Virus record (IMG/VR): IMGVR_UViG_3300022602_000038
Location: 32,001-96,000 of that record
DNA length: 64,000 bases
Origin: a virus
Reading direction: 5' to 3' (one strand)
Below, piece by piece: positions 1,190 through 10,268 of the stretch; within the stretch, counting starts at the first letter, position 1; every line of letters starts with the position of its first letter. The notes beneath the pieces are model-generated. The model saw only the letters and a list, made by a program, of their open reading frames with translations. It had not been told where the DNA came from and made no database searches. The position numbers and the translations under genes are program-made.

Positions 1190-1217
1190 AAAAAGGTAAA
1201 AAAAAGGTAATATTTTG

Positions 1218-1246
1218 TTGCCTTTATACCTTAAAGTATGCATAAT
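1218..1246 (+). promoter_or_regulatory. sigma70-like early promoter
   Basis: TTGCCT-17-CATAAT with A-rich UP region. Confidence 0.65.
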
Positions 1247-1595: not shown

Positions 1596-1623
1596 ATTGT
1601 ATTATAATGATAAGTAATGGTAC

Positions 1624-2103
1624 ATGAGGAGTCAATATAAAGTTTTAGCAGAAGCTTATAATAGGGTACTTGAAACAAGTAAGCCTATTACAAAAGAAGA
1701 CACCTCTAATGAGTGGTACAATGATGCAAGAAAGCAGATAGATAGTTCCGACGGAGCCTACGGGTTTTCTTTCTTTAAAACAATAAAGGATTGGCCACAT
1801 CCAGATGAATTTATAAAGTTTTTATGTAAACACATATACGGTGTTAGTGTAGATTATTTTGAAATAGTTACGTATGGTATTGATAAATTCATTACTACGA
1901 TGTTTGGACATGAGGTAGACAGTATTGCAGGGGATATAAGAGATAAGAACCCGCATTTAAGTCATAAAGAGATAAATGATATTTCAGATAAATTAGCGGT
2001 AAAAAAACTAAAAGAATATTATAACCAATTTAAAACTTACCAAAAGGCTCAAGCAGTACTTAAAAAAGGTTCCGAAGAATCCGGAGTAGACATAGACATA
2101 TAA
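1624..2103 (+). CDS. protein with LxEAY leader and C-terminal GVDIDI tail
   Basis: MRSQYKVLAEAYNRVLE...AQAVLKKGSEESGVDIDI; TAAGTA at 1611-1616. Confidence 0.8.
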   Translation: MRSQYKVLAEAYNRVLETSKPITKEDTSNEWYNDARKQIDSSDGAYGFSFFKTIKDWPHPDEFIKFLCKHIYGVSVDYFEIVTYGIDKFITTMFGHEVDSIAGDIRDKNPHLSHKEINDISDKLAVKKLKEYYNQFKTYQKAQAVLKKGSEESGVDIDI

Positions 2104-2107
2104 TAAC

Positions 2108-2560
2108 ATGAGAGACAACACTACCAAACTACTAGAAGAGGCATATAAAAAGGTTCAAGAAAGAGATGGACGTTTAGAGACATGGGTAAAAGGAGATCAA
2201 AATGAACGTAATGAATATAAAAACTACGTTCAAACCAAGTTTAATGGGGATTATAGAAAGGGTGCACAAGCGTGGGCTCAAATGAAGAACAGACCCACGG
2301 ATGATGTCTTTAATGATAAAGCACGTTTAGATGCATTTATGAAAGCAGACTTCGACTTCAACACATTTGATGAACAGGATTGGAACAATTATTGGCTCCT
2401 AGCACAGCACTGCGATAAAAATAGGGAATTTCAAAAGAAAGCACTAGACATTATCGAACAGTATCTTGGCACCGAACACAGTCATTATAAGTACCTTTAC
2501 GATAGATTATCCTTAGCACTGACCGGTAAACAGAAGTACGGCACACAGAATGCAAAATAA
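2108..2560 (+). CDS. DUF6624-like domain protein with LxEAY leader
   Basis: WLLAQHCD..FQ..AL...YLYDR......QKYGTQ motif; leader MRDNTTKLLEEAYKKVQE. Confidence 0.7.
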   Translation: MRDNTTKLLEEAYKKVQERDGRLETWVKGDQNERNEYKNYVQTKFNGDYRKGAQAWAQMKNRPTDDVFNDKARLDAFMKADFDFNTFDEQDWNNYWLLAQHCDKNREFQKKALDIIEQYLGTEHSHYKYLYDRLSLALTGKQKYGTQNAK

Positions 2561-2576
2561 GGACTATATAAGGGGA

Positions 2577-3044
2577 TTATCTTAGTTCACCTTCGTCAGC
2601 ATTATGATCCTTGATCCACTGTAACAGATCATTGCCCTTTAGTACATTATCAATAGTTATAGTTTCTGTGCTTGTGTAGTTGCCCGGTTCAATGCTACCC
2701 ATATTTTGATTAGAGATATGTTTATTAAACTTACCAGCATTTGTATGTATCACTAATAAAGCACCGTGTTTGGATATATCTGCACTAGAAGGGATATAGT
2801 TACCTTTGTTTAATTTTCTTTGTATCTGACTAGACAGTGCACAGTATACCGCTCTTGCCCCTTTTGAATCACTAGCAAACACCGCCGGTATGGCCTCTTT
2901 CTTATAAAGCTCTTGAGTAAACTTTCCTACAGTCGGAGTTAACCCCTGTGCAAGTATTGACGGAACATTATCAATTAGGGTACCGTGATACAGTCTAAGA
3001 CTATCATCAGTTGTATTTTCATAAAAGAAATCTCTAAACGTCAT
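2577..3044 (-). CDS. putative ADP-ribosyltransferase-fold protein (HGT/PARP-KptA-like), likely virion packaged
   Basis: LYHGT..NV.SIL.QGL and downstream VFAS strand; start moved to 3044 (MTFRDFFYE) because TATAAATA lies at 3050-3057 on the minus strand. Confidence 0.6.
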   Translation of the reverse strand: MTFRDFFYENTTDDSLRLYHGTLIDNVPSILAQGLTPTVGKFTQELYKKEAIPAVFASDSKGARAVYCALSSQIQRKLNKGNYIPSSADISKHGALLVIHTNAGKFNKHISNQNMGSIEPGNYTSTETITIDNVLKGNDLLQWIKDHNADEGELR

Positions 3045-3049
3045 TATAG

Positions 3050-3057
3050 TATTTATA
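3050..3057 (-). promoter_or_regulatory. canonical T4-type late promoter TATAAATA
   Basis: exact motif 5 nt upstream of ATG at 3044. Confidence 0.7.
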
Positions 3058-3100
3058 AAAAAGCTTGATATAATGCAATAAGTTACCATAATACGGTGTT

Positions 3101-3250
3101 ATGAGTAACTTTAACTGTGAACAATATGTACTAGATAACTACGGTGAAGAAATAGTAGATATGTTCGTAGAGGAGTATGGTATATATGCTACAACATATC
3201 TATATAGCTTAACACAGGATGAAGTAGATGATGTATTAGCTAAGTACTAA
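3101..3250 (+). CDS. small acidic protein (49 aa), absent from ORF track
   Basis: MSNFNCEQYVLDNYGEEIVDMFVEEYG...LAKY*; TTGATA-16-CATAAT promoter at 3065-3092. Confidence 0.6.
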   Translation: MSNFNCEQYVLDNYGEEIVDMFVEEYGIYATTYLYSLTQDEVDDVLAKY

Positions 3251-3251
3251 T

Positions 3252-4472
3252 ATGAGAGATAGGACTACCATACTACTAGAAGAGGCATATGAAAAGGTTA
3301 AAGAAGCGGCTATACTACCGGATGAATCTAAAGTTGATAAAGTAATGGATATATTGAACAAAGCACAACAGTTAAGACAGCAAGGATATAGTGTAAAAAA
3401 AACAGAACAAAATGCAATAAAAGAGTTGGCACTTCTTAATATAACCATTAAGGATTTGGAAGCGCCTATAGGCGCCGGGATTGTATACAATCCCATCAAT
3501 TTTTATGATACAGGAAGAATAGTAATTAGTAGAGATTTATTTAAAAGGTACATAGACTTGCCCTTTAGTAAAAGTAAGGTCGAGTGTAAACATAGAGAGA
3601 AAGTAATGAGACGATTAATCGGTCACGAATATATTCATCAATTGCAACTTATACGTAAATTAAAAAGGATCCATTCATTAAATAAGCCTGCAGGCATCTA
3701 TGATAATGAAGAAAGGATCAATTCATTAAAAAAGCTTGCAGGCATCTATAATAATGAAGTACGGTATCATAGCCGCCATTTTGATAATAAAGACCCTAAG
3801 TTTTATTATAACAATTATAACGAAATAATGACCTATGCCTATGAAATGGCAAAGAAGATATACGATAAGTTGAATATAGATAAGTACAAAGCAAGGAACT
3901 TTACCAAGGATCAAATTTACAAAGTAGTACAAAGGTTTATGCAAGTAGATAGATTTGCTACAAACAAAATGAGTAAAGAAATTGTTCAGCACCTCACCCC
4001 AGATAATGTAAAACGGTACTACAAGTACATTTACGATTATGTAGGACAGTTGTATGATGGTATATTAAAAGAACCAAACAATAAGGTAAGGGATTCATTA
4101 AACGAAAAGGGTGTTATAGTTAGTGGAAGATTTTATGGTCAAACGATACAAGACTATGTAGAGAGGTTTTTACCTAAGCATTTTAAAGAAAAAAATAAAG
4201 TCAACAAAGAAGAATTATTAGACTTTGTAAAGTATATTCAAGATAATATCTATAAACATATACCAGTTACTCGTACTAAATTCTCCAGTAAAAATGTATT
4301 ACCTTTATTGTATCTAGCAAATAAGATTATACTAAGTAATCCTAATTTAACTTCAAATGCAGTATATAAACAAGTATTAGAGTTCCTTTATAAAGAGTAC
4401 ACCTACCATAAGAAGACACAAGCAGTACTTAAGAAGGGCTCTAAAGAAGCAGGCATTGATATAGATATATAA
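3252..4472 (+). CDS. HExxH zinc metallopeptidase-like protein with LxEAY leader and GIDIDI tail
   Basis: IGHEYIHQLQ plus downstream YYNNYNEIMTYA (candidate third ligand E); leader MRDRTTILLEEAYEKVKE; tail TQAVLKKGSKEAGIDIDI. Confidence 0.7.
   Translation: MRDRTTILLEEAYEKVKEAAILPDESKVDKVMDILNKAQQLRQQGYSVKKTEQNAIKELALLNITIKDLEAPIGAGIVYNPINFYDTGRIVISRDLFKRYIDLPFSKSKVECKHREKVMRRLIGHEYIHQLQLIRKLKRIHSLNKPAGIYDNEERINSLKKLAGIYNNEVRYHSRHFDNKDPKFYYNNYNEIMTYAYEMAKKIYDKLNIDKYKARNFTKDQIYKVVQRFMQVDRFATNKMSKEIVQHLTPDNVKRYYKYIYDYVGQLYDGILKEPNNKVRDSLNEKGVIVSGRFYGQTIQDYVERFLPKHFKEKNKVNKEELLDFVKYIQDNIYKHIPVTRTKFSSKNVLPLLYLANKIILSNPNLTSNAVYKQVLEFLYKEYTYHKKTQAVLKKGSKEAGIDIDI
3665..3760 (+). repeat. in-frame 48-bp tandem duplication
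   Basis: RIHSLNKPAGIYDNEE / RINSLKKLAGIYNNEV. Confidence 0.8.
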
Positions 4473-4505
4473 GTACGTAGTTATTACATCTACTTTAAAA
4501 TCTAT

Positions 4506-4557
4506 ATCCGTTTTGAGAAATTCGAATTTCTAAATCCAGAAGTGCATACAAATTTGG
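4506..4557. repeat. dispersed repeat copy 1 with palindromic core GAAATTCGAATTTC
   Basis: 28 bp at 4517-4544 identical to 8970-8997. Confidence 0.85.
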
Positions 4558-4658
4558 CTCCCTATATAGAGAACACTTATAGCCTATAGAGCACTAACTG
4601 GACTGTGCCCCGGACTATATCAGACGAAGTAGATATCACTAAGCACCTATAAAAGTAA

Positions 4659-4718
4659 ATCCAGTAACGGAAATTTGAATTTTGTAAAACAGAAGTGCAA
4701 CTAATTACGGAAGCACTA
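4659..4718. repeat. dispersed repeat copy 2 (degenerate)
   Basis: ATCCAGTAACGGAAATTTGAATTTTGTAAAACAGAAGTG...GCACTA aligns to the 8943-9018 unit. Confidence 0.65.
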
Positions 4719-4875
4719 TTGGAAATGAAATAGAGAGAAATGGAATACAGGAGAAAAATGTGTGGAGATGAGTGGAGTGTATTAAACTAAGTCTCTCCGC
4801 CAATTTTTTTCAAGCTTTTTTTTGCAAAATTTTGTAATATGGCTTTTTTTATTGCACATTCTAAGGTATGTTTAT

Positions 4876-5244
4876 ATGAATAACACGTGGAGGTATAGTG
4901 TCCCGACTAGGAGTGATTTGCCAATATATGTTTCTTTTGGTGATGTCAACGATTATGATATACGGTTATTTGACAAGGAGGTACCTGCAGGTAAGGTGTT
5001 ATGGGTGCATGCAGATATACCTAAGTTACCGGTCAATAAGGAGCAAACGGTAATAGACTCTAGGTTTCAGGAGCTAGCTAACAGTGATAGTACAACAGAG
5101 TGGTTTGATAACGACTGGTTTGCTGCAGGGTTCCACTATGCTGTAGAGGTGATACATAATGAGGTACAGAAGGTTAGTACTAAGAAATCCACCAAAACAT
5201 CTCCTTTTATTGATCCGGCAATATATTTCAAAAAAGATATATAG
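4876..5244 (+). CDS. hypothetical protein
   Basis: ORF 4822-5244; first ATG at 4876 is the more plausible start. Confidence 0.65.
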   Translation: MNNTWRYSVPTRSDLPIYVSFGDVNDYDIRLFDKEVPAGKVLWVHADIPKLPVNKEQTVIDSRFQELANSDSTTEWFDNDWFAAGFHYAVEVIHNEVQKVSTKKSTKTSPFIDPAIYFKKDI

Positions 5245-5475
5245 CAATTTAATAAGGTGAGTCTATAAAAGAATCCCTTAATCAACTGTATTACATCCCT
5301 TTTATCCCTATTAGAAATAATAATTGGAGTATTCGTATATAAACTTTCTTTATATTGGATTTTTTTGGAGTATAACTTATAAGTTGCTCTAATAGCACCT
5401 GTATAAAATTAATGATGTTAATAGAGAGTGTAAATTTCAATAAATTATTAGATTTATTTGGATTAAAAAAAAGAG

Positions 5476-5504
5476 TTGCCTGTTATTAAAAAATAGCCTA
5501 AAAT
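5476..5504 (+). promoter_or_regulatory. sigma70-like promoter driving candidate ncRNA
   Basis: TTGCCT-17-TAAAAT. Confidence 0.6.
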
Positions 5505-5507
5505 GAA

Positions 5508-5593
5508 GTACTGGGGTGAAAGCGCCGTAATCTGCAGTACCCCAATGGCTAGGCGCTTCTTGGAGGAGGTTCCTTATACGCCAATAATGAGGA
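5508..5593 (+). ncRNA. candidate pseudoknotted small RNA
   Basis: GC-rich island; TGGGGT(5512-17)/ACCCCA(5539-44) crossed with AAGCGCC(5520-26)/GGCGCTT(5552-58); 3' hairpin TCCTTAT/ATGAGGA; begins near the predicted TSS. Confidence 0.5.
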
Positions 5594-5658
5594 TTTAATT
5601 AAAAAGGTCAACTAAAAAAGGGATTATTTAATAAAAAAAAGAGTTGTAATATTACAAA

Positions 5659-5734
5659 AAATCTAGATTATTAATTTTGTATTAGTTATAAAACACTTAT
5701 AATTAAACATTAACAAAATAAACCAAAATAATAA
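5659..5734 (+). repeat. 76-bp perfect direct repeat copy 1 (promoter -10 plus 5' leader cassette)
   Basis: identical to 6294-6369; each ends 1 nt before an ATG and follows an AAAAAGAGTTG -35 region. Confidence 0.92.
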
Positions 5735-5735
5735 T

Positions 5736-5972
5736 ATGAGTAATAATAAAAGAGAAGTTAAATTAATAAATTGTAACTTATTAGATGTTAAAAATAACAA
5801 ACTAATTAAAATGGAGGGGTATGTTAAAATTGTAAATTATGATAATAAAGAGTATTTTGAGGTAAATTTAAGAGATGGGGATTTTAATAATGAGAAGTAT
5901 ATTTTAATAGGAAGTAATGAGAAGTTTAAGATTTTTGGTAAAGATGATGATGGAGGATATTTTGTAATTTAA
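5736..5972 (+). CDS. hypothetical early protein, mostly C-free codons
   Basis: 78-aa ORF directly after repeat copy 1. Confidence 0.7.
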   Translation: MSNNKREVKLINCNLLDVKNNKLIKMEGYVKIVNYDNKEYFEVNLRDGDFNNEKYILIGSNEKFKIFGKDDDGGYFVI

Positions 5973-6268
5973 ATAAATTAAGTAATTTGAATTTTAGTGT
6001 TGATTTAATAATAAAATAATATAGATTAATAATATGAAAAATAATTATAAAATAATTAAATTAAGTGTTGAAGAATTTATAGAAAAATATTATAATAAGT
6101 ATTTAGAAGAAAAATATGAAGATAATTGGATGGATGTAGTTATAGAAGAATTATTAAAAGATAATATTAAAATAGAATTTATAGATTAATAGAAATTAAG
6201 TAGTTTGAATTTTAGTGTTGATTTAAATAATAAAATAAAAAAATAATTAAAAAAAGTTTGTAATAATG
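5803..6268 (+). other. 466-bp tract with no cytosine on the + strand
   Basis: last C at 5802, next C at 6269; many G retained. Confidence 0.92.
6034..6189 (+). CDS. small acidic protein (51 aa) encoded without any C, absent from ORF track
   Basis: MKNNYKIIKLSVEEFIEKYYNKYLEEKYEDNWMDVVIEELLKDNIKIEFID*; GTTGATTT -35-like motif upstream. Confidence 0.6.
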   Translation: MKNNYKIIKLSVEEFIEKYYNKYLEEKYEDNWMDVVIEELLKDNIKIEFID

Positions 6269-6293
6269 CAAAAAAGAGTTGCATTAATAAGAG

Positions 6294-6369
6294 AAATCTA
6301 GATTATTAATTTTGTATTAGTTATAAAACACTTATAATTAAACATTAACAAAATAAACCAAAATAATAA
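6294..6369 (+). repeat. 76-bp perfect direct repeat copy 2
   Basis: identical to 5659-5734. Confidence 0.92.
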
Positions 6370-6370
6370 C

Positions 6371-6631
6371 ATGTCAGTCGAAATACAAAATAAAGTTAGT
6401 CTACCTATTAAAATCGAGAAAGGCATTAAAATGCCTTTCTCTTCTAAAGTAGCCACTCCTACTAAAAAATATAATAACTATAAAAAAATATTTAATAAAA
6501 TGCAAACAGGCGATTCTTTTATAGTAGAGCAAACAAAATTATCTGGCATTTCACAAGCATCTAAAAAATTAAACTTTAACTACATTAGTAGATCTATTAA
6601 CGATCAAGTAGTAAGAGTTTGGAAGGTATAA
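6371..6631 (+). CDS. small putative DNA-binding phage protein
   Basis: IKIEKGI.MP...KY...M..GDSF...VRVW pattern typical of a widespread small phage family. Confidence 0.65.
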   Translation: MSVEIQNKVSLPIKIEKGIKMPFSSKVATPTKKYNNYKKIFNKMQTGDSFIVEQTKLSGISQASKKLNFNYISRSINDQVVRVWKV

Positions 6632-6658
6632 CTAATACAACAATACACAACAAAACTA

Positions 6659-6691
6659 GCTTGCCCTTTTAATTAAGGGCAAGCATTTTTT
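6659..6691 (+). terminator. intrinsic terminator
   Basis: GCTTGCCCTT/AAGGGCAAGC stem plus T run. Confidence 0.8.
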
Positions 6692-6699
6692 ATTTAAAA

Positions 6700-6810
6700 A
6701 TGAAAGCTTTCTTAATTATCTCTACCCTAATCTTATTCGTTATTTTCTGGTTCTTATTAGATATGAACTCTTTATTAGAAGAGTTAGAAGAAGAGGATTT
6801 TTACGAATAA
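6700..6810 (+). CDS. small single-pass membrane peptide (36 aa)
   Basis: MKAFLIISTLILFVIFWFLLD followed by acidic tail. Confidence 0.5.
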   Translation: MKAFLIISTLILFVIFWFLLDMNSLLEELEEEDFYE

Positions 6811-6865
6811 TATAGTTGCAAGGTTTAATAAAAACAGATATATTATAAGAGTAAACTAAAATAAC

Positions 6866-7012
6866 ATGAACAACAAAAATATATTAAATAAAATCAGTAA
6901 AGTAGACGAACTCTTACAAGAATTAAAGGAGTTATATGATGCAGGTAAAATGACAGTAGAGGAAGAAGCTAGTTATGAAAACTTTCTCTATAATTTAAAC
7001 GACACAATTTAA
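6866..7012 (+). CDS. small helical protein (48 aa)
   Basis: MNNKNILNKISKVDELLQELKELYDAGKM...; TTGCAA -35 at 6816. Confidence 0.55.
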   Translation: MNNKNILNKISKVDELLQELKELYDAGKMTVEEEASYENFLYNLNDTI

Positions 7013-7053
7013 AGCTATTAAAATAGTGTTGATTTAATAATATTATATAATAG

Positions 7054-7090
7054 AGGAGATATATATTAGGTTATATATCTCCTATTTTTT
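7054..7090 (+). terminator. intrinsic terminator
   Basis: AGGAGATATATA/TATATATCTCCT stem plus T run. Confidence 0.75.
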
Positions 7091-7235
7091 ATATGCTTCC
7101 AATTATACCTGCCCACACCTCCCCATTATTATAATAAAACTTTCTCATTAAAAGGCAACTTAAAAAGGATTTTATTTTCTTAAAAAAGGATAATATTTTG
7201 TTGACCTTACTAATAATTTAATCCACATTGTTTGT

Positions 7236-7841
7236 ATGAAACGATACCAACAACCAATTGCAGTAGATGGGTGTATGGCTAGTGATTACAATCATCTTAC
7301 ACTCAATATAAAAGGTTTAAAGAAAGAAGAACAACCACCTTTAAACCAGTCAAGCTATTTAGTTTACAATGCAACTGGTGCATATGTAGGGTGGATAGAT
7401 GATAAATCTGTAAAGAAGTACCTTTACAGCTACTTACCTTATCATTATAGCAATTTAACCAAGAGTACAGTAAAGGGATCTAACATTAAACTAGTATGTA
7501 GTAAGTCTACAGGTAAGATAGTATTATTGTTTAAGTCAACTTATATAAATGAAGAGAGTGTATTAGAATTGAATGATAAGGTGGAACTAGCCAATTACTT
7601 TCTTAAACACGAACTCAATAACATTACATTTGACAAGGTTTATGATGGACGTCAGTATCAGATATACTGGACTGATAAGCACAATCTAGCACCACATCTT
7701 ATAAAGGTATTAGATGATAAGTTAGATAAAGTAATGAAAGAGTTCAAGCAAGAAGTTGAACGTTCAATAACAAACATAATCAAAGAAAGAGAAGTAATAA
7801 GGCTTGCCGAACAGGAAACAGGCATTACTATTGACATATGA
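7236..7841 (+). CDS. hypothetical early protein with GITIDI tail
   Basis: TTGACC-17-CACATT at 7201-7229; C-terminus AEQETGITIDI resembles tails of 1624 and 3252. Confidence 0.75.
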   Translation: MKRYQQPIAVDGCMASDYNHLTLNIKGLKKEEQPPLNQSSYLVYNATGAYVGWIDDKSVKKYLYSYLPYHYSNLTKSTVKGSNIKLVCSKSTGKIVLLFKSTYINEESVLELNDKVELANYFLKHELNNITFDKVYDGRQYQIYWTDKHNLAPHLIKVLDDKLDKVMKEFKQEVERSITNIIKEREVIRLAEQETGITIDI

Positions 7842-9890: not shown

Positions 9891-10268
9891 ATGCAAGCAC
9901 GTTCTATAAAAATATTACAAGAAGCATACGAACAAGTTAACCGGAGTAGAATGCACAGTATCACTAAGCCGGTGATGAACGAGAGAGGCGGCGAACAAGA
10001 AGACGATGATGATATCAACTCGGCAGCTGACGGGGCAACGCTACACATAGCTAAAGCCGGCATATGGTCTGTAGTGAACGGGTTCTTAAGGGGTAATTTA
10101 ACGTTTATTGGTAAGGGTGGTAAAGTTTACACTTTATCTATGGTAGACAAGCTATTGCAATCGGCTACTAATAAGGAGGAATTAAGGCACGTATTTGACT
10201 TATTAGATATGGAGAGGTATATGAGTGGTAAAGCACCGGAACGATTTGACCCATCTAACAACGAATAA
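9891..10268 (+). CDS. protein with LxEAY leader
   Basis: MQARSIKILQEAYEQV; TAAGTA at 9875-9880. Confidence 0.75.
   Translation: MQARSIKILQEAYEQVNRSRMHSITKPVMNERGGEQEDDDDINSAADGATLHIAKAGIWSVVNGFLRGNLTFIGKGGKVYTLSMVDKLLQSATNKEELRHVFDLLDMERYMSGKAPERFDPSNNE

Follow-up and report, generated by a model that had tools for sequence, protein, structure and literature searches.

What keeps the last residues of several proteins alike when the rest of each protein is not? This question is raised by a 64,000-nucleotide stretch of viral DNA (the window), which comprises bases 32001-96000 of one IMG/VR record (IMGVR_UViG_3300022602_000038; 140,720 bp, linear, 34% G+C) that is about 65% complete as estimated by CheckV. 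In a preliminary description, three genes of the window, here named E (1624-2103), F (3252-4472) and G (7236-7841), were said to encode unrelated proteins with a common C-terminal tail, which was read as a docking signal that is selected as a peptide and can be combined with an N-terminal leader. The three C-termini are exactly as they were quoted there. Here we follow this tail through the whole record, where it is found as a tag at the end of each module of single-module proteins and polyproteins alike, and we discuss how it may mark, module by module, cargo for the phage head.

Judged from its genes, the source of the record is a distant, uncultured T4-like myophage. Its tail sheath is 32-42% identical to gp18 of T4-like phages (cyanophages, a pelagiphage and enterobacterial phages), and a T4-type large terminase is encoded on the contig together with UvsX, UvsY, a gp32-like single-stranded DNA-binding protein, a clamp and two replicative helicases. 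The right end of the contig is occupied by replication, lysis and queuosine genes. A megablast search with the region returned no DNA-level match to cultured phages.

A conserved tag ends each module of six genes

A loose scan of the genome combined with splitting of the proteins recovers 21 copies of the tag core, [KN]KGS[EK]E[AS]G[IVM][DE]IDI, in six genes. Four of these lie upstream of the window, namely gene A (genome 20130-20675, one module), gene B (genome 20672-23755, seven modules), gene C (genome 23752-27318, eight modules) and gene D (genome 30347-31816, three modules, with a GTG start as in the database protein P0001). The other two lie on the plus strand of the window and carry an N-terminal leader as well as the tag: gene E (genome 33624-34103) encodes 159 aa and gene F (genome 35252-36472) 406 aa with a pI of 9.6, each as a single module. 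The C-terminal element of E spans 28 residues (window 2017-2100, plus strand) and consists of a helix part and the core KKGSEESGVDIDI (2062-2100), followed by the stop codon. The 28-residue element of F (window 4386-4469, plus strand) has the core KKGSKEAGIDIDI at 4431-4469, again followed by the stop codon. When a profile made from the last 40 residues of the 21 copies was scored on 1702 six-frame segments of the genome, each of the six tag genes matched with an E-value of 4e-16 or below (2.8e-17 for gene E and 9.4e-18 for gene F).

The preliminary description had treated the tail as C-terminal and had proposed a search of the genome for further C-termini of this kind; a six-frame scan of the whole genome finds the motif at seven open reading frame (ORF) ends. 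Six of the 21 tag copies are indeed terminal, but the other 15, which had been overlooked, are internal. All six terminal copies run into a stop codon directly after IDI, never after IDIE or IDIEE, and three of these stop codons overlap or abut the ATG of the next gene (ATATGA or ATATAATG). After every one of the 15 internal copies come EE, one of the residues A, N, S and G, and a further module of 115-190 aa, and the polyproteins are chains of 3, 7 and 8 such modules. Candidate explanations of the joint by 2A-like skipping, frameshifting or an intein were rejected, as no fitting motif or slippery sequence is seen there.

The tag has two parts, a helix of about 15 residues and then an exposed strand, KKGSxEAG[IVM][DE]IDI. 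An AlphaFold2 (AF2) model of module C5, built together with four paralogues, is a helical bundle with a predicted local distance difference test score (pLDDT) of 74 and a predicted template modelling score (pTM) of 0.67. The conserved ...EYKNxxKTQAVYKKGS... stretch forms its last helix (residues 125-144). The pLDDT falls below 50 over the first 21 and the last six residues of the model, which places the joint within some 30 flexible residues that separate folded modules. No fold match to the C5 model was found in PDB or BFVD.

The module bodies belong to many unrelated families

The bodies were compared after removal of the last 30 residues, using the modules of this genome and five related proteins. 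The tag-stripped bodies form 17 BLAST families, and the number of families with no detectable similarity to one another is at least 10. Five families, including that of E, are weakly linked by HHalign through an N-terminal motif of 25-45 residues (47-60% probability), and E and the B6 module family have only a 26-residue motif in common (60% probability). The bodies of F and G match none of the other families, with best HHalign probabilities of 7.6% and 4.6%, respectively. Neither BLASTP nor HHalign finds any similarity among the bodies of E, F and G, in agreement with the earlier statement that the three bodies are unrelated.

The identity of these bodies is not revealed by database families. 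Polyproteins B, C and D have no Pfam match at or above the curated cut-off and no informative PHROG match, and E belongs to no Pfam or PHROG family; Pfam, PHROGs, a PDB sequence search and Atlas were all uninformative on the functions of the bodies. We also note a weak match to phrog_1457 (lysis inhibition accessory protein) that reaches across the tag-EE joint into the first part of the C2/D3 module family (L001:11752-15315, residues 160-219, E = 3.5e-7; L001:18248-19813, residues 333-369, E = 0.006).

The tag is rare and varies with the genome

The tag profile finds 11 clusters among 1.84 billion representative proteins, six of which are this genome's own. The same tag is present in proteins P0003, P0005, P0008 and P0002 (word-indexed search). 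P0002, P0005 and P0008 are made of differing subsets of the modules of genes B and C, and in the relatives modules are absent, added or relocated exactly at the joints.

Related proteins carry the tag in other forms. P0004 contains modules homologous to C3, C6/C7, B3/D2 and B6, and in six of its six copies the tag reads ...NKGTQATNGEWDM[TSA]GL, with the form ...GEWDM[TSA]GL/EE (slashes mark tag ends or putative cutting sites); the internal copies are then followed by EE, and the protein ends ...TGL. A third variant, ...KKGSQQTGWDLSALD/EAKG, is found in P0012, where the form is ...GWDLSALD/E and the protein ends ...SALD. Each variant is uniform within its protein. Since homologous modules carry the variant of their own genome, the tag follows the genome rather than the module family. 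All three joints have just one feature in common, hydrophobic-[E/D]-E with a small residue after it. A phiKZ-type cut inside the tag at S-x-E/A was rejected, as variants 2 and 3 have no Glu at that position.

Searches further afield returned little. Against cultured phages, the 40-residue tag gives only tblastn matches with E-values of at least 3, the best of which falls in the middle of a ClpP-like protease of Flavobacterium phages and was dismissed as chance. Polyprotein C has no tblastn match in cultured phages and no relative among viral contigs. The DNA patterns of the three tag variants give 0, 0 and 1 matches in IMG/VR, and the single match, L042, was rejected as an unrelated high-GC baseplate contig. 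Searched against metagenome contigs, the tag alignment finds one 3.8-kb contig, L030, at whose edge (L030:3-68) there is a true tag end, ...KGTEEAGMEIDI-stop / ...RKGTEEAGMEIDI-stop. The rest of L030 looks bacterial (AAA ATPase, SIMPL-like protein), and the contig may be chimeric or may stem from a different host-range context. No description of such a tag was found in the literature searched, a limited search in which absence is not proof.

These variants bear on the proposal, made in the preliminary description, that the tail is a free C-terminal docking peptide. Such a peptide would be read by a hub, through PDZ-like beta-strand addition, as an adaptor signal or degron, or at an ejection gate, and the internal copies would be uncut spacers or be freed at IDI/EE. 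The uniform stop after IDI at all terminal copies speaks for it, as do the purifying selection on the terminal tags, the predicted flexibility of the last six residues in the C5 model, and the end I-D-I-COOH, which fits a hydrophobic-x-hydrophobic C-terminal ligand, the ligand type of PDZ class II domains. However, most copies are internal linkers, and the terminal residue differs in kind between the variants (I, L or D), such that a hydrophobic free carboxylate is not conserved in ends like ...TGL and ...SALD. No known phage head protease would fit cutting in front of a Glu where P1 is I, L or D. Counting further against a docking peptide, no PDZ_2 domain, and hence no PDZ-type reader, is found on the contig, and the tag encoded by the phage transfer-messenger RNA (tmRNA) ends ...ALAAA and is unrelated to the IDI tail. 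We consider this explanation quite unlikely in the form first proposed, and note that the genome-specific variants and the conserved terminal copies may leave room for docking to a phage partner.

The tmRNA (L003:4377-4759, minus strand, genome 100377-100759) is detected by Rfam RF00023 with 68.8 bits and was missed by ARAGORN. It was rejected as a source of the tag, since its tag frame ends ...SFALAAA-stop, an ordinary ssrA-type degron.

Selection acts on the peptide

E and F have the same residue at 10 of the 13 core positions, but use the same codon at only 3 of these 10; both genes are saturated at synonymous sites. Because the two tails differ at 7 of 10 same-residue codons, selection acts on the peptide, as the preliminary description had concluded from the synonymous divergence of these tails. 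Over all 210 pairs of copies, codon identity at shared residues is 0.67, compared with 0.50 expected from codon usage, and the excess comes mostly from the internal copies. Conservation is equally good in terminal and internal tags, whose identity to the consensus is 0.85 and 0.90, respectively.

Separately, we observe that the final Ile codon of the tag is ATA in 20 of the 21 copies (window 2098-2100 and 4467-4469 among them) and that the Ile two residues before the tag end is ATT in 18 of the 21. Genome-wide usage of the two codons is near equal (ATA 0.45, ATT 0.47). This bias at the joint Ile positions points to conservation at the DNA level that peptide selection alone leaves unexplained.

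A further alternative is that the tag reflects shared ancestry of one helical-bundle domain with a slowly evolving last helix and tail, or persists as the recombination boundary for duplication and shuffling of modules, and has no address or docking function. Its helix part is indeed an integral, confidently modelled helix of the module fold, and five families including that of E are weakly joined by HHalign, as noted above. The long exact DNA runs shared by internal copies, the nearly invariant ATA and the gain and loss of modules at joints likewise speak for this alternative. Ancestry, however, would not account for F, which is basic and 406 aa long and shows no relation to the rest, nor do several other families. 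Neither is DNA homology what is maintained, because E and F retain the peptide despite saturated synonymous change. Finally, the presence of a genome's own variant on homologous modules needs co-ordinated replacement, which is hard to envisage without a common reader. On this evidence, we regard shared ancestry or a recombination boundary as unlikely.

A T4-like leader and an upstream TAAGTA motif accompany the tag

Genes B, D, E and F start with M/V-R-x-x-Y/T-K/T-x-L-x-E-x-Y, in which L is residue 8 and E is residue 10. The leader of E reads MRSQYKVLAE/AYNRVLE (window 1624-1674, plus strand), with L8 and E10 as in the T4 capsid targeting sequence, and that of F reads MRDRTTILLEE/AYEKVKE (window 3252-3305, plus strand). 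In the targeting sequence of T4 IPIII, residues 8 and 10 govern processing and residues 4 and 7 govern targeting (PMC9026906). Gene C has a degenerate leader without the Glu, and gene A begins MLTFKQFTE. Two module families begin with EEAYQxVxSE, which repeats the second half of the leader; for this reason the end of the leader appears to be the same site as the joint.

The leader is also found without the tail, on at least six proteins (window 470, 830, 2108 and 9891; genome 27565 and 100804). The four in the window are encoded on the plus strand and comprise 117 aa (470-823) and 119 aa (830-1189), both without a C-terminal tag, 150 aa (2108-2560, starting 4 nt after the stop codon of E) and 125 aa (9891-10268, with TAAGTA upstream). 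The earlier claim that leader and tail assort independently rested mainly on G, the weakest member: all six strong tag genes begin with the leader or a degenerate form of it. The broader part of that account, a portable, peptide-selected element that sits on unrelated bodies and is modular with an N-terminal leader, is supported.

TAAGTA stands 5-20 nt before the starts of A, D, E and F and of several leader-only genes. As a putative late-type element it lies at window 1611-1616 (plus strand), 7 nt before the start of E, and at window 3241-3246 (plus strand), 5 nt before that of F. The same motif precedes terminase, fibre, tube, tape-measure-sized and baseplate genes, and only two minus-strand genes are preceded by it. 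Its sites include window 1611, 3241, 15641, 19643, 24816, 38517, 43732, 47664 and 53538. TAAGTA is probably the late-type element of this lineage, in place of T4's TATAAATA.

A proposed per-module mark on head-loaded cargo

Building on the observed anatomy, copy number, rarity, variants, selection and shared upstream motif, we propose that the tail marks each module of capsid-loaded cargo with an address and a place to cut, a reading to which we give about an even chance of being correct. The cargo proteins would be made late, alongside the structural proteins, and the leader would load each polypeptide into the prohead. A T4-type head protease would then act on (I/L)-[E/D]-E where the leader ends and where each tag meets EE, cutting behind the Glu. 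The freed small, mostly acidic modules would remain in the head and enter the cell with the DNA at injection. In addition, the 13 residues before the joint would most likely serve to dock every module onto the same phage partner, either the protease or the scaffold core. They are more than a cutting site, because they are kept on terminal and stand-alone modules that have nothing to release; and since the tag is replaced as a set between lineages while homologous bodies stay, one common reader per phage is suggested.

The proposed cut is consistent with what is known of T4 gp21 and its giant-phage relatives, which cut after Glu; T4 Alt, for example, is cut at ITE-6 and, on its C-terminal side, at LTE-619 (PMC5694885). 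The hydrophobic-[E/D]-E at all joints fits cleavage by gp21 after Glu at I/L-x-E. Candidate sites of this type are I-E-E at 15 of 15 joints, L-E-E and L-D-E at the variant joints, and the leader ends.

Several points weigh against this proposal. (I/L)xE is a short motif that arises by chance in any protein, and cleavage and packaging of the modules are predictions from sequence. For cutting alone, 13-28 conserved residues would not be required, and the determinants of gp21 are described as very few (PMC9026906). The terminal copies, lacking a Glu, are uncuttable by this rule, and their conservation needs the added assumption of docking. Identical stretches of DNA (median 14 nt, maximum 40 nt) recur among the internal copies, and to judge from these the uniformity of the internal copies is partly the product of recent duplication or gene conversion. 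Whereas T4 IPII and IPIII are basic, most of the modules are acidic (pI 4.5-6). Finally, homologues of gp21, gp23 and gp20 (Pfam PF03420, PF07068 and PF07230) were found neither on the contig, which is about 65% complete, nor on five terminase-related contigs, and the whole head module, with portal, protease, scaffold and capsid genes, is missing from these six contigs. Because the head genes are absent from the contig, the cutter is assumed from the T4-like nature of the phage. A mapped 140-kb relative, G001, has leader proteins and has neither the tag nor a head module.

In a stronger version of the proposal, the tag would be a second, C-terminal address that does not depend on the N-terminal targeting sequence, is read on every module by one phage receptor (scaffold core, protease exosite or portal) and is re-keyed together with this receptor, as lock and key, in each lineage; we consider this rather doubtful.

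Other proteases could serve the same architecture. The enzyme that cuts the joints might be a metallopeptidase of the phage or a protease of the ClpP type, and it may act only once injection has taken place; gene F provides a candidate. F carries both tags and a HEYIH (HExxH) motif at residues 125-129 (window 3624-3638, plus strand), a candidate zincin metallopeptidase site. This motif is invariant between F and the only F homologue found, the partial protein P0013 (48% identity), in which the leader of F is also conserved. In Atlas, F leads to the SprT, DUF6782 and ImmA zincins. A metallopeptidase-von Willebrand factor A (VWA) protein with a DUF2201_N match (genome 15960-17807, E = 1.7e-21) is also encoded, with an AAA ATPase next to it and the tag genes following, and processing of polyvalent proteins by zincins has been proposed by Iyer et al. 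2017 (PMC5512222). The contig further encodes a ClpP-like protein (L003:11117-11680, minus strand, genome 107117-107680) with a Pfam CLP_protease match at E = 3.7e-28 and weaker matches to head-maturation-protease PHROGs. On the other hand, the Atlas leads for F are weak, with scores too low to exclude chance, the AF2 model of F (pLDDT 48) is unusable, and one HExxH will commonly turn up by chance. The neighbours of the ClpP-like gene are non-structural genes of the minus strand, and it is not preceded by TAAGTA. Moreover, the constant feature of the tag variants is a Glu at the cut position, which is a hallmark of gp21-type proteases and not of zincins. Cutting by a metallopeptidase or ClpP-type enzyme therefore seems improbable to us.

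In the same part of the genome, directly upstream of gene A (L001:3960-7307, genome 15960-19310), the 615-aa DUF2201_N/VWA protein and the 495-aa MoxR-like AAA ATPase stand together. A role of this couple as a processing or chaperone pair for the polyproteins is possible.

Comparison with known systems

By analogy, the systems closest to the proposed mark in function and logic are the T4 internal proteins with their targeting sequence and the polyvalent proteins. What sets it apart from both is the long, conserved, genome-private tag on every module, which is kept at true C-termini too.

In T4, as here, a short N-terminal leader with a hydrophobic residue 8 and Glu 10 is found on unrelated proteins (IPI, IPII, IPIII and Alt), the cutting sites are of the I/L-x-E type, and the genes form a variable cluster in a T4-like phage. 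A C-terminal propeptide is also known from T4 Alt, where it is removed at LTE-619 (PMC5694885, PMC9026906). The T4 internal proteins, however, are single proteins, whereas chains of 3-8 modules occur here as well, and T4 has no conserved C-terminal tag repeated on every cargo. Unlike T4 cargo, the terminal tag here has no Glu after it and would stay on the protein. The present modules differ also in being mostly acidic, and the protease, scaffold and capsid genes of this phage have not been seen.

Polyvalent proteins are, like the present polyproteins, long phage proteins of many independent domains that are reshuffled between relatives. They are predicted to travel in the phage head, to enter with the DNA and to be set free by proteolytic cleavage (Iyer, Burroughs, Anand, de Souza, Aravind 2017; PMC5512222), and they combine 2-15 domains per polypeptide, with recognisable enzymes and zincin peptidase hubs (PMC5512222). 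The chains described here are multi-domain in the same sense, with 3, 7 and 8 modules that behave as independent units in relatives. In B, C and D, Pfam and PHROGs recognise no known conflict domain or embedded zincin, the only HExxH being in the separate protein F, and unlike the recognisable domains of polyvalent proteins, the modules tested match neither solved structures nor viral models. The main text of PMC5512222 never uses the word 'linker', from which we take it that no repeated, conserved inter-domain tag is described there.

Giant phages offer a third comparison. In phiKZ, 201phi2-1 and SPN3US, many of the proteins inside the head are cleaved behind the Glu of a three-residue motif, frequently more than once per protein, and the inner-body and ejection proteins of giant phages form paralogous families with conserved N-terminal propeptides (PMC5694885). 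Their motif is S/A/G-x-E or A-x-E with few other determinants, and they have no tag of 13-28 residues, no chains of modules with identical joints and no tag at true C-termini.

A further likeness is to a fourth system that fills a protein shell, although there is no sequence similarity to the tag. The cargo-loading peptide of encapsulins is a short, conserved, flexible C-terminal address that brings unrelated cargo into a shell of the HK97 fold. Unlike the present tag, encapsulin peptides stand at protein ends only and are found neither at joints between modules nor as cutting sites.

Gene G and neighbouring genes

For E and F, the shared tail of the preliminary description lies far beyond chance, but its third gene, G (window 7236-7841, plus strand), is a marginal member. 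G encodes 201 aa and ends ...ETGITIDI (tail 7794-7838). It scores E = 0.3 (8 bits) with the tag profile, in an alignment that reaches the exact C-terminus, and is the best real ORF outside the tag family by profile score. As estimated from residue frequencies, about 0.003 ORFs would be expected to end in G[IV]xIDI by chance. Homologues that are 76-79% identical to G retain GVTIDI, which adds little because the whole C-terminal third is conserved. G has neither the N-terminal leader nor the TAAGTA motif.

The sigma70-type promoter that had been assigned to G fails a consensus scan, and sigma-70-type sites are not enriched in the region (51 observed vs 46.6 in shuffles). An upstream element of another kind, [G/T]AATATTTTGTTG[A/C]C, occurs at window 1206-1230 and 7173-7200, before the 86-aa gene at 1294 and before G at 7236. 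This shared element may be an early or middle promoter type of the phage.

Two further genes deserve mention. Within the cluster of tag and leader genes, a 170-aa gene on the opposite strand (window 2577-3089, minus strand) encodes the motif LYHGT...GL, and its product has a weak match to a PARP-type ADP-ribosyltransferase (Pfam PARP, E = 0.0049, below the cut-off). Farther away, a 179-aa protein (L038:5110-5649, minus strand, genome 139110-139649) has an endolysin-like domain (phrog_938, E = 7.6e-19). Its N-terminus ends ...FNMILNE/A, an I/L-x-E site resembling that of the leaders, and its gene is preceded by TAAGTA; the protein may be a wall hydrolase carried by the virion.

Implications

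The T4 capsid targeting sequence is, to our knowledge, the only well-understood phage route by which arbitrary proteins are addressed to the head for delivery, and it is already in use as a tool. The grammar suggested here gives each polypeptide a leader, each module a conserved end-mark and each joint a cutting site, and from one phage to a related one the end-mark is exchanged as a whole. If the stronger version of the proposal is true, a code carried at both ends and private to the genome would govern how exchangeable proteins are loaded, cut and delivered, and it could be used to load chosen proteins into phage heads. Should the end-mark dock modules to the protease or scaffold, this would account for the way in which T4-type proteases select among many I/L-x-E sites, a choice that reviewers of the T4 field regard as an open puzzle (PMC9026906). 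The same reading, if true, would explain how such a phage maintains a quickly changeable kit of small injected proteins, which are probably anti-defence factors.

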